From Escherichia coli (GTDB taxonomy: Bacteria > Pseudomonadota > Gammaproteobacteria > Enterobacterales > Enterobacteriaceae), in the NCBI RefSeq assembly GCF_022846255.1, contig NZ_AP025682.1: a stretch of 64,000 bases of DNA, one strand, 5' to 3'. Numbering within the stretch: position 1 is the stretch's first letter; each line of letters starts with the position of its first letter. This document shows, piece after piece, positions 4,637 to 16,890 of this stretch. The translations under genes and the position numbers were made by a program. The notes under the pieces were generated by a model. The model made no database searches. It saw only the letters and a list, made by a program, of their open reading frames with translations, and had not been told where the DNA came from.

Positions 4637-7005
<2,369 letters not shown>

Positions 7006-7278
7006 TGGTTTGGTCAGCATAGCATCATGTTGTGCGAATAAACACCTGCTATTTTAATATTTGTTACAGTTGCTAAACACGCTGACGCAGGGCGGCGAGA
7101 AAAAGAGAAGTTACTGGCTGGTGGAGGATTAGGTGGTGAAATAAAAAGGCCGTTGGGTTACTCTTCAGGCAGTTAAATGGGCATTTCTACACAGATAATG
7201 CGATGTTCAGATTCTGTAGACTTATAATGATAGATAATGATCCGTCTACAGCATGACAAACAAAAACAGATGCGTTAC

Positions 7279-7306
7279 GGAACTTTACAAAAACGAGACA
7301 CTCTAA
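7279..7306 (+). promoter_or_regulatory. sigma-E-type promoter upstream of rpoE (rpoE P2-like)
   Basis: GGAACTT, 16-nt spacer, TCTAA; about 83 bp upstream of the rpoE ATG. Confidence 0.7.
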
Positions 7307-7388
7307 CCCTTTGCTTGCTCAAATTGCAGCTAATGGAGTGGCGTTTCGATAGCGCGTGGAAATTTGGTTTGGGGAGACTTTACCTCGG

Positions 7389-7964
7389 ATGAGCGAGCAG
7401 TTAACGGACCAGGTCCTGGTTGAACGGGTCCAGAAGGGAGATCAGAAAGCCTTTAACTTACTGGTAGTGCGCTATCAGCATAAAGTGGCGAGTCTGGTTT
7501 CCCGCTATGTGCCGTCGGGTGATGTTCCCGATGTGGTACAAGAAGCTTTTATTAAAGCCTATCGTGCGCTGGATTCGTTCCGGGGAGATAGCGCTTTTTA
7601 TACATGGCTGTATCGGATTGCTGTAAATACAGCGAAAAATTACCTGGTTGCTCAGGGGCGTCGTCCACCTTCCAGTGATGTGGATGCCATTGAAGCTGAA
7701 AACTTCGAAAGTGGCGGCGCGTTGAAAGAAATTTCGAACCCTGAGAACTTAATGTTGTCAGAAGAACTGAGACAGATAGTTTTCCGAACTATTGAGTCCC
7801 TCCCGGAAGATTTACGCATGGCAATAACCTTGCGGGAGCTGGATGGCCTGAGCTATGAAGAGATAGCCGCTATCATGGATTGTCCGGTAGGTACGGTGCG
7901 TTCACGTATCTTCCGAGCGAGGGAAGCTATTGATAACAAAGTTCAACCGCTTATCAGGCGTTGA
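7389..7964 (+). CDS. rpoE: RNA polymerase sigma-E factor
   Basis: 191 aa from the internal ATG (MSEQLTDQVLVERVQKGDQKAF...). Confidence 0.95.
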   Translation: MSEQLTDQVLVERVQKGDQKAFNLLVVRYQHKVASLVSRYVPSGDVPDVVQEAFIKAYRALDSFRGDSAFYTWLYRIAVNTAKNYLVAQGRRPPSSDVDAIEAENFESGGALKEISNPENLMLSEELRQIVFRTIESLPEDLRMAITLRELDGLSYEEIAAIMDCPVGTVRSRIFRAREAIDNKVQPLIRR

Positions 7965-8647: not shown

Positions 8648-9603
8648 TGAAGCAACTTTGGTTTGCCATGTCATTAGTGACAGGTAGCCTGTTATTCTCT
8701 GCTAACGCCTCGGCCACTCCCGCGTCCGGGGCGTTATTACAGCAGATGAACCTGGCCAGTCAGTCACTGAATTACGAGCTGTCATTCATCAGCATCAATA
8801 AACAGGGTGTTGAGTCTCTGCGTTATCGACATGCACGCCTCGATAACCGTCCTCTTGCACAATTGTTGCAAATGGATGGCCCGCGCCGGGAAGTGGTACA
8901 GCGCGGCAATGAGATCAGCTATTTTGAACCGGGACTTGAACCGTTCACGCTTAATGGCGATTACATTGTTGATTCTCTGCCATCGCTCATCTATACCGAT
9001 TTCAAACGCCTTTCTCCTTACTACGACTTTATCTCCGTCGGGCGCACGCGTATTGCTGATCGTCTTTGCGAAGTTATTCGCGTGGTTGCCCGAGATGGTA
9101 CACGCTACAGCTACATCGTGTGGATGGACACCGAATCGAAATTACCGATGAGGGTTGATCTCCTTGATCGCGATGGTGAAACGCTGGAACAATTTCGCGT
9201 GATTGCTTTTAATGTCAATCAGGATATCAGCAGCAGTATGCAGACGCTGGCGAAGGCAAATTTGCCGCCGTTGCTTTCTGTTCCTGTAGGTGAAAAAGCC
9301 AAATTCAACTGGACTCCAACCTGGTTGCCACAGGGTTTTAGCGAAGTTTCCAGTAGTCGACGTCCGCTACCGACGATGGACAACATGCCTATTGAATCAC
9401 GTCTCTATTCCGACGGATTATTCAGCTTCTCGGTAAACGTTAACCGCGCTACGCCATCGAGCACCGATCAGATGTTGCGCACCGGACGCAGAACCGTCAG
9501 TACAAGCGTACGTGATAACGCCGAAATCACCATTGTCGGTGAACTGCCGCCGCAAACGGCGAAACGCATTGCCGAGAATATTAAGTTCGGGGCAGCGCAA
9601 TGA
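8647..9603 (+). CDS. rseB: sigma-E regulatory protein RseB
   Basis: 318 aa with signal peptide; start overlaps the rseA stop. Confidence 0.95.
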   Translation: MKQLWFAMSLVTGSLLFSANASATPASGALLQQMNLASQSLNYELSFISINKQGVESLRYRHARLDNRPLAQLLQMDGPRREVVQRGNEISYFEPGLEPFTLNGDYIVDSLPSLIYTDFKRLSPYYDFISVGRTRIADRLCEVIRVVARDGTRYSYIVWMDTESKLPMRVDLLDRDGETLEQFRVIAFNVNQDISSSMQTLAKANLPPLLSVPVGEKAKFNWTPTWLPQGFSEVSSSRRPLPTMDNMPIESRLYSDGLFSFSVNVNRATPSSTDQMLRTGRRTVSTSVRDNAEITIVGELPPQTAKRIAENIKFGAAQ

Positions 9604-10079
9604 TCAAAGAGTGGGCTACCGTCGTCTCCTGGGAAAACGGGCAGGCGCTGGTTAGTTGTGATGTTAAAGCCTCATGCAGCAGCTGCGCTTCACGCGCCGG
9701 TTGCGGTAGCCGCGTGTTGAATAAACTTGGCCCGCAAACCACGCATACCATTGTCGTACCCTGTGATGAACAGTTAGTGCCGGGGCAAAAAGTAGAATTA
9801 GGAATCGCCGAAGGCAGCCTGCTTAGCTCCGCATTACTGGTTTATATGTCGCCGTTGGTGGGACTATTCCTCATCGCTTCACTATTTCAGCTACTCTTTG
9901 CTTCAGATATTGCAGCATTATGCGGTGCGATTCTCGGTGGCGTTGGTGGATTCCTGATTGCACGTGGCTGCTCTCGAAAGTTTGCTGCCCGGTCTGAATG
10001 GCAACCGATCATCTTAAGCGTGGCCTTGCCGCCTGGCCTTGTGCGATTTGAAACATCTTCGGAAGACGCGAGCCAGTGA
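9600..10079 (+). CDS. rseC: sigma-E regulatory protein RseC
   Basis: 159 aa with cysteine-rich N-terminus and C-terminal membrane segments; overlaps the rseB stop. Confidence 0.93.
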   Translation: MIKEWATVVSWENGQALVSCDVKASCSSCASRAGCGSRVLNKLGPQTTHTIVVPCDEQLVPGQKVELGIAEGSLLSSALLVYMSPLVGLFLIASLFQLLFASDIAALCGAILGGVGGFLIARGCSRKFAARSEWQPIILSVALPPGLVRFETSSEDASQ

Positions 10080-10276
10080 TTTCACTGGCTTTGTTGCATT
10101 TTGCATAACAAATGCGAGGACGTTTCCAGATACCACAATCCATACGGTATGAACATTTCCTCGCCTCAATGTTGTAGTGTAGAATGCGGCGTTTCTATTA
10201 ATACAGACGTTAAGCTCAGAACAGCGACTTCTAAAAGCCTGGTTAACCGGGCATTAAGGCACAATAATCATACTTT

Positions 10277-12076
<1,800 letters not shown>

Positions 12077-13110: not shown

Positions 13111-13211
13111 AATTATTTATGAGATAAATCTCCCGTGGCTAACGACATCCCCCGTCGTTGTGTATAGAATATTCCCCCGAAGTTTAAGGTTGGCACCTCC
13201 AGGTTGCCACG

Positions 13212-13305
13212 GCACACGAAACAGCGTTGGTCCCCATATACCGGTAAACTGAAACTGCAGCGAAGCAGTTAGCAGAGCCATGTATATCAGGTCTGTTTCG
13301 TGTGC
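13212..13305 (+). promoter_or_regulatory. rnc leader long-range stem (candidate RNase III autoregulatory site)
   Basis: 13-bp inverted repeat GCACACGAAACAG (13212..13224) / CTGTTTCGTGTGC (13293..13305) in the 5' UTR of rnc. Confidence 0.45.
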
Positions 13306-13308
13306 TGA

Positions 13309-14921
<1,613 letters not shown>

Positions 14922-16784: not shown

Positions 16785-16805
16785 AAAATACCGTTCTCTT
16801 TATAA

Positions 16806-16890
16806 AGTAAAACCCCCGAACTGGTAAGGAACGGGGGTTTTCAGTTTACAACTTTAATTTTGTGCAGCACACGATTCCAACGGAAATAAT
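16806..16890 (-). ncRNA. ohsC: candidate OhsC-like antisense sRNA; approximate bounds
   Basis: Inferred from the K-12 locus. A minus-strand transcript over 16862..16880 would be complementary (18 of 19) to 17111..17129 in the shoB 5' UTR and could end at the hairpin at 16813..16841. Confidence 0.3.
16813..16841. terminator. rho-independent terminator after acpS, possibly bidirectional
   Basis: Stem CCCCCG / CGGGGG with a 13-nt loop and T4 on the + strand; U-rich on the opposite strand as well. Confidence 0.6.

Follow-up and report, generated by a model that had tools for sequence, protein, structure and literature searches.

The open reading frame overlapping the rpoE start codon in an Escherichia coli chromosome is the known leader gene rseD

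The rpoE locus and the identity of the leader ORF

The window, i.e. the whole stretch of 64,000 nucleotides that was analysed, comes from the chromosome of Escherichia coli, with nadB followed by the genes rseD-rpoE-rseA-rseB-rseC. The genes rseA, rseB, rseC and lepA lie 3' of rpoE on the plus strand. The features used in this study are listed below, with distances given relative to the rpoE start codon where they are negative.

5359-6981, minus strand: nadB, the upstream neighbour
7223..7228, plus strand: TATAAT -10 hexamer, conserved in Enterobacteriaceae, which fits the published P5 start at -153
7237..7392, plus strand: rseD (b4725), rpoE leader peptide, from the ORF list, the RefSeq annotation and NF033697
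7270..7272, plus strand: internal ATG, Met12 of RseD, at -119 from rpoE and upstream of the sigma-E promoter
7279..7306, plus strand: sigma-E-dependent promoter rpoE P6 (GGAACTT-N16-TCTAA), recognised from the sequence and conserved across Enterobacterales
7313..7320, plus strand: GCTTGCTC box at the start of the P6 transcript, with complementarity to rpoE codons 2-4 (7391-7398)
7333..7335, plus strand: internal ATG, Met33 of RseD, at -56 from rpoE, within an AUGGA motif (Shine-Dalgarno energy +1.4 kcal/mol)
7367..7390, plus strand: rpoE ribosome-binding region, with the Shine-Dalgarno sequence GGGGAG at 7371-7376 and a predicted hairpin 7367-7374:7383-7390
7389..7392, plus strand: ATGA, overlap of the rpoE start and the rseD stop (the coupling junction), from the sequence
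7389..7964, plus strand: rpoE (sigma-E), the downstream coupled gene, from TIGR02939 (328.7 bits) and the annotation

The frame that ends on the rpoE start codon opens at ATG 7237, is preceded by an in-frame stop (TAG 7231-7233) and encodes 51 codons followed by TGA (MIRLQHDKQKQMRYGTLQKRDTLTLCLLKLQLMEWRFDSAWKFGLGRLYLG). In a RefSeq genome with 100% identity to the window, the annotated rseD coding sequence falls on positions 7237-7392. The same identity is found with the DNA of K-12 MG1655 over the 221 nt compared (7180-7400), where rseD (b4725, annotated as "rpoE leader peptide") occupies positions 2710009-2710164 (156 nt) on the minus strand, and the copy in the window does not differ from that of K-12 in DNA, frame, number of codons or ATGA overlap. 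The product is recognised by the NCBIfam equivalog NF033697 (leader_RseD): it scores 104.2 bits, the cutoff being 35 (E 3.2e-30), and its residues 7-51 align to profile positions 1-45 of 45. A 551-nt query spanning the leader region had matches in 5,425 of 5,426 complete E. coli genomes, and the annotation under the match reads "rseD: rpoE leader peptide RseD", rpoE and nadB, with rseD present in every row listed; a 201-nt query covering rseD was at least 99% identical in 5,424 of 5,425 genomes. No Pfam domain was found in RseD (DUF7878, with an E value of 0.13, is below threshold). We are therefore highly confident that the ORF at 7237-7392 is the 51-codon leader rseD already known from the rseD-rpoE-rseA-rseB-rseC operon.

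A sequence-only reading of the same DNA had proposed a leader ORF of 40 codons from ATG 7270, or 19 codons from ATG 7333, and had likened it to the described rpoE leader peptide. The two ATGs indeed share one frame, in which TGA 7390-7392 overlaps the rpoE ATG (7389-7391) as ATGA, and the likeness was well founded, as the ORF is rseD according to both NF033697 and the K-12 annotation. The annotated leader has the frame and the stop that were proposed, and it is the start codon that differs. Both lengths had been counted correctly (40 and 19 residues, the shorter peptide being MEWRFDSAWKFGLGRLYLG), but the annotated gene begins at ATG 7237, 33 nt upstream of position 7270, and has 51 codons, and the two proposed starts are the internal Met12 and Met33 of RseD. 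The K-12 positions that correspond to 7237, 7270 and 7333 are 2710164, 2710131 and 2710068.

The gene itself is not new: it was described in 2017 and belongs to the standard annotation. Yakhnin et al., in 2017, are said to have given the name rseD to the 51-codon ORF (ORF51), and reportedly found that the translation of rpoE drops by more than 50% when coupling is lost. The operon notation rseD-rpoE-rseA-rseB-rseC is used in PMC8595263, where every promoter is placed upstream of or within rseD. Translation of rseD is stated in PMC12350097 to have been validated earlier with a chromosomal lacZ translational reporter, and the same paper counts rseD among the additional genes picked up by the PIRT-Seq reporter-transposon screen; rseD is not mentioned in the supplementary text on PIRT-Seq.

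The Rfam search gave no rpoE-leader family, and the matches between positions 6950 and 7500 were all at chance level. Elsewhere in the window, Rfam families were matched by AsrC, the antisense RNA of the rseC mRNA (9564-10395, minus strand, 510 bits), which lies opposite rseC and the start of lepA, by the autoregulatory element of the rnc leader, rncO (13179-13393, plus strand, 258 bits), and by the antitoxin sRNA ohsC (16804-16881, minus strand, 89 bits), the last two being known E. coli features.

Promoters and the transcripts that carry rseD

Six promoters are attributed to rpoE in PMC8103513 and PMC6358824 (with reference to Klein et al. 2016), with transcription starts at -381, -327 (common to P2 and P3), -218, -153 and -75, the start at -75 being that of P6, the promoter through which sigma-E regulates its own gene. 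The P6 elements had been identified from the letters of the window as GGAACTT (7279-7285) and TCTAA (7302-7306) separated by a 16-nt spacer, and they are present as described. The accompanying statement that the leader ORF lies downstream of this promoter does not hold for rseD, which spans it: the promoter sits inside the coding sequence, with the -35 element, the -10 element and the probable transcription start all within the gene. The published start at -75 would correspond to approximately position 7314, seven nucleotides past TCTAA. A P6 transcript starting there, inside rseD, cannot encode full RseD; it contains neither ATG 7237 nor ATG 7270, and its sole in-frame ATG is 7333, at about +20. 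The proposal that only the 19-codon version fits into the sigma-E transcript is geometrically right, since a start near 7314 is beyond both 7237 and 7270.

The situation is different for P5, whose published start at -153 would fall on position 7236, seven nucleotides after the TATAAT hexamer and one nucleotide before the AUG of rseD, which would make rseD nearly leaderless on this transcript. The hexamer itself is separated from the rseD ATG by 8 nt. A simple sigma-70 promoter scan of positions 6950-7450 found nothing, so the hexamer at 7223-7228 is not accompanied by a good -35 element under the rule used. A near-leaderless start from P5 offers a possible alternative route for the initiation of rseD translation.

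Start codons and their conservation

No Shine-Dalgarno complementarity was found before any of the three in-frame ATGs (7237, 7270 and 7333), for which the energies range from +0.6 to +1.4 kcal/mol, compared with -8.0 kcal/mol for rpoE. The three codons also differ in their distribution. The annotated rseD start, at -152, is found in Escherichia only, where it is made by a 1-nt insertion (GATAATGATCC as opposed to GATAA-GACC, in comparison with one Salmonella locus, L084, and two Citrobacter loci, L086 and L007). Salmonella and Citrobacter have the corresponding 1-nt deletion, and their start is the ATG at -161 inside TATAATG, giving 54 aa, while Enterobacter and Klebsiella have no ATG equivalent to the annotated start. 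Escherichia, Salmonella and Citrobacter all have both internal ATGs (-119 and -56), and the one at -119 is absent from Enterobacter and Klebsiella; the RseD of Citrobacter amalonaticus (P0012) is annotated from the -119 ATG. The homologues of Salmonella and Citrobacter (54, 51 or 40 aa) have the same position and the same ATGA overlap as E. coli rseD and share with it the C-terminal half LMEWRF(D/E)(S/G)AWKFGLGR(L/H)YLG. They differ from it in their start, which is the ATG at -161 or -119, and in the N-terminal residues, which are changed by the 1-nt indel. The annotated rseD start codon is thus specific to the genus.

The overlap and the open frame

Of the 77 related loci with a match starting at the rpoE ATG, 72 have ATGA at this place. 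The ATGA is forced by the protein, because RpoE begins with Met-Ser, the serine codon being AGC, and taxa such as Vibrio, Aeromonas and Shewanella carry it too, with just 0-10 open codons in the upstream frame. The overlap was therefore rejected as evidence in itself, given that it persists in taxa that do not have the ORF; an overlapping stop and start is necessary, and not sufficient, for a translationally coupled pair. The length of the frame is more informative. Under a first-order Markov model of the nadB-rpoE intergenic region, the chance that an ATG-initiated ORF of at least 51 codons ends at this TGA is P ~0.009, and for at least 19 codons it is P ~0.07. Among 33 Enterobacterales, the overlap frame is open over a median of 38 codons, the medians of the two remaining frames being 18 and 14; openings of at least 25 codons occur in the overlap frame of 23 of the 33 genomes, compared with 11 and 8 for those two frames. 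The longer opening of the overlap frame is suggestive, as the kinship of these 33 genomes makes the comparison no formal test.

The pattern of substitutions points to conservation of nucleotides rather than of a peptide. Over the last 45 codons of rseD, E. coli and Citrobacter differ at 5, 6 and 6 sites by codon position (pN/pS 0.66), while for rpoE the same pair of genera gives 3, 1 and 31 (pN/pS 0.03). Both of the two differences between the rseD genes of E. coli and E. albertii are non-synonymous. The conserved blocks comprise the promoter elements, GCTTGCTC, GAGTGGCGTTTCGA, GCGTGGA and the Shine-Dalgarno region, and indels of 1-2 nt shift the frame in which Enterobacter and related genera read these blocks, the overlap frame still being open. 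Judging from these comparisons, the RseD peptide itself is not conserved and carries no sign of selection, which agrees with a leader that works by being translated and not through its peptide.

A protein search returned the RseD cluster P0006, with 7 member sequences on 20 contigs, in which the protein stops after residue 40. We take this to reflect a probable early stop codon, some 30 nt short of rpoE, in which case rseD could do without an exact overlap with rpoE. Three further E. coli RseD variants (P0013, P0007 and P0014) are frameshifted or fused forms, which are either sequencing errors or real alleles.

Structure of the rpoE leader RNA

The RNA expected at the 5' end of the P6 transcript begins with a box, GCUUGCUC (7313-7320), that is nearly invariant in 32 Enterobacterales sequences. 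Its complementary partner, GAGCGAGC (7391-7398), runs from the last base of the rpoE AUG through codons 2 and 3 to the first base of codon 4. In the minimum-energy fold of 7313-7410 the helix formed by the 5' box is stacked on the hairpin 7367-7374:7383-7390, which contains the Shine-Dalgarno region, and RNAalifold also picks the long-range helix. The variants GCUUGUUC and GCUUGCUU still pair, through G-U, and the box of Siccibacter (UGCUCGC) pairs with GCGAGCA in a shifted register. Over the 32 sequences, 98% of the cells are paired in the 5'-box helix and 93% in the Shine-Dalgarno hairpin; taken together the two helices reach 95.5%, compared with 43-50% in slid controls. Covariation was sought in both helices in the same 32 sequences, and no pair was changed on both sides, because the 3' strands are the invariant start-codon and coding sequence. 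When the P4, P5 and P6 transcripts were folded as single sequences, the structure varied with the transcript ends that were chosen and the z-scores were only about -1.1, and no structure is claimed from these folds. The predicted 5'-box helix is best regarded as no more than a lead. A genuine helix would hide the rpoE start on the sigma-E transcript or else shield the 5' end of this transcript.

The same region is a reported target of CsrA: according to PMC7652899 the protein has three binding sites in the leader of rpoE, of which two overlap the Shine-Dalgarno sequence and the start codon, and it represses translation. In the window, GGA motifs that are candidate CsrA sites cover these two elements (GGGGAGA, 7371-7377, and CGGAUGA, 7385-7391) and are nearly invariant in Enterobacterales. 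The P6 leader contains four GGA motifs in all (7335-7337, 7356-7358, 7373-7375 and 7386-7388). GCGTGGA, GGGGAGA at the Shine-Dalgarno sequence and CGGATGA at the start codon are conserved across Enterobacterales, and AUGGAG at the internal ATG is found in Escherichia, Salmonella and Citrobacter only.

Coupling of rseD and rpoE, and alternative explanations

The coupling of rseD to rpoE could work as follows. Any mRNA begun at one of the upstream promoters (-381, -327, -218 and -153 according to the published starts) would carry AUG 7237, and ribosomes traversing the leader would terminate at UGA 7390-7392, on top of the rpoE AUG. Termination at this place, together with a presumed unwinding of the structure holding the Shine-Dalgarno sequence and start codon of rpoE, would lead to more initiation on rpoE, that is, to translational coupling. 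CsrA bound to the GGA motifs over the same two elements would oppose it. The P6 transcript could take part in this coupling only through the internal AUG 7333. Three observations count against an explanation by rseD coupling, namely that no in-frame ATG has a Shine-Dalgarno sequence, that the annotated start is not conserved outside Escherichia, and that the 40-residue form P0006, if it does stop early, would make the exact overlap dispensable.

Among known systems, the nearest mechanistic parallel is found, by analogy, at iraD (Park et al. 2017, from the summary in PMC7652899), where, as with rseD, a short upstream ORF is coupled to the gene of a stress regulator and CsrA acts on the leader. 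There is no sequence relationship between the two ORFs, and the mode of repression differs: according to the same summary, CsrA represses the upstream ORF of iraD and the iraD ribosome-binding site is not blocked, whereas for rpoE it is reported to bind directly over the Shine-Dalgarno sequence and start. The attenuation-type leaders trpL, hisL and pheL resemble rseD in being short ORFs in a 5' leader whose translation, and not their product, is what regulates. Unlike them, rseD has no run of regulatory codons and is not followed by a terminator or antiterminator. No terminator-like site was found in 6950-7450, and the overlap of the rseD stop with the rpoE start leaves no room for one, so any effect would be on the initiation of translation and not on the termination of transcription. 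An attenuation-type leader was rejected on these grounds.

Three other explanations of the ORF were weighed against the coupling of the 51-codon rseD. According to one of them, the 19-codon ORF from AUG 7333 is the relevant unit under envelope stress, where it would couple rpoE on the P6 mRNA, the 51-codon form serving the upstream promoters only. Its AUG is the only one in frame left on a P6 transcript starting at -75 (~7314) and lies within AUGGA, a sequence of the type bound by CsrA, and this ATG at -56, unlike the annotated start, is shared by Escherichia, Salmonella and Citrobacter. In addition, Serratia (L025), Rahnella (L022) and Photorhabdus (L029) carry ATG-initiated ORFs of 19-21 codons in the overlap frame, starting at -56 to -62 and preceded by AGGA (-4.3 to -4.4 kcal/mol). 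These ORFs are inside the predicted sigma-E transcript and end at the rpoE ATGA, and their peptides are unlike RseD except for the last few residues. The AUG of E. coli, however, has no Shine-Dalgarno sequence (+1.4 kcal/mol), an ORF of this length has the higher chance probability given above (P ~0.07), about half of the sampled Enterobacterales, including Klebsiella and several Enterobacter, have neither ATG nor GTG at this place, and we found no experimental evidence for translation from AUG 7333, all of which makes the short ORF an unlikely unit of control. A related proposal, which we hold to be just as doubtful, is that the sigma-E P6 mRNA is under a translational control of its own, in which GCUUGCUC would pair with rpoE codons 2-4 and bury the start together with the Shine-Dalgarno hairpin, and translation of the 19-codon ORF from AUG 7333 would open the structure.

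The remaining two explanations concern the product and the existence of translation. That RseD might be a functional small protein in the envelope stress response is a possibility reportedly raised by its discoverers (Yakhnin et al., in 2017), and an action in trans would agree with the near invariance of the gene within E. coli; the promoter and RNA elements embedded in the gene explain this invariance equally well. Translation of the gene, as described in PMC12350097, is a further point in its favour. The pN/pS of ~0.66 with no bias towards third positions, the non-synonymous nature of both differences from E. albertii, the frameshifts between genera together with the variable start codon, the lack of a Pfam domain and the 40-residue form P0006 returned by the protein search all argue the other way, so a trans-acting RseD appears very improbable. 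Conversely, the ORF could be an untranslated by-product of a region conserved for its promoter and mRNA structure, with an ATGA that the Met-Ser start of RpoE forces. This would account for the ATGA being kept in taxa that lack the ORF, for conservation at the level of nucleotides and for in-frame ATGs that are all devoid of a Shine-Dalgarno sequence. It is difficult to reconcile with the lacZ reporter and the PIRT-Seq screen, which support translation (PMC12350097), with the low probability of an ORF of at least 51 codons arising by chance (P ~0.009) and with an overlap frame that is open for longer than the control frames in the 33 genomes, and we consider it extremely unlikely.

Implications

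E. coli cannot live without sigma-E and is harmed by too much of it, and each layer that sets its level therefore matters. Confirming the rseD layer adds nothing new to this picture. The genus-specific start codon, the lack of any sign of selection on the peptide and a main stress-induced transcript that would be unable to encode RseD all bear on how the coupling of rseD and rpoE works during the stress response. Should the P6 mRNA indeed be under its own translational control, which we consider doubtful, the autoregulated and the housekeeping transcripts of rpoE would be translated under different rules.
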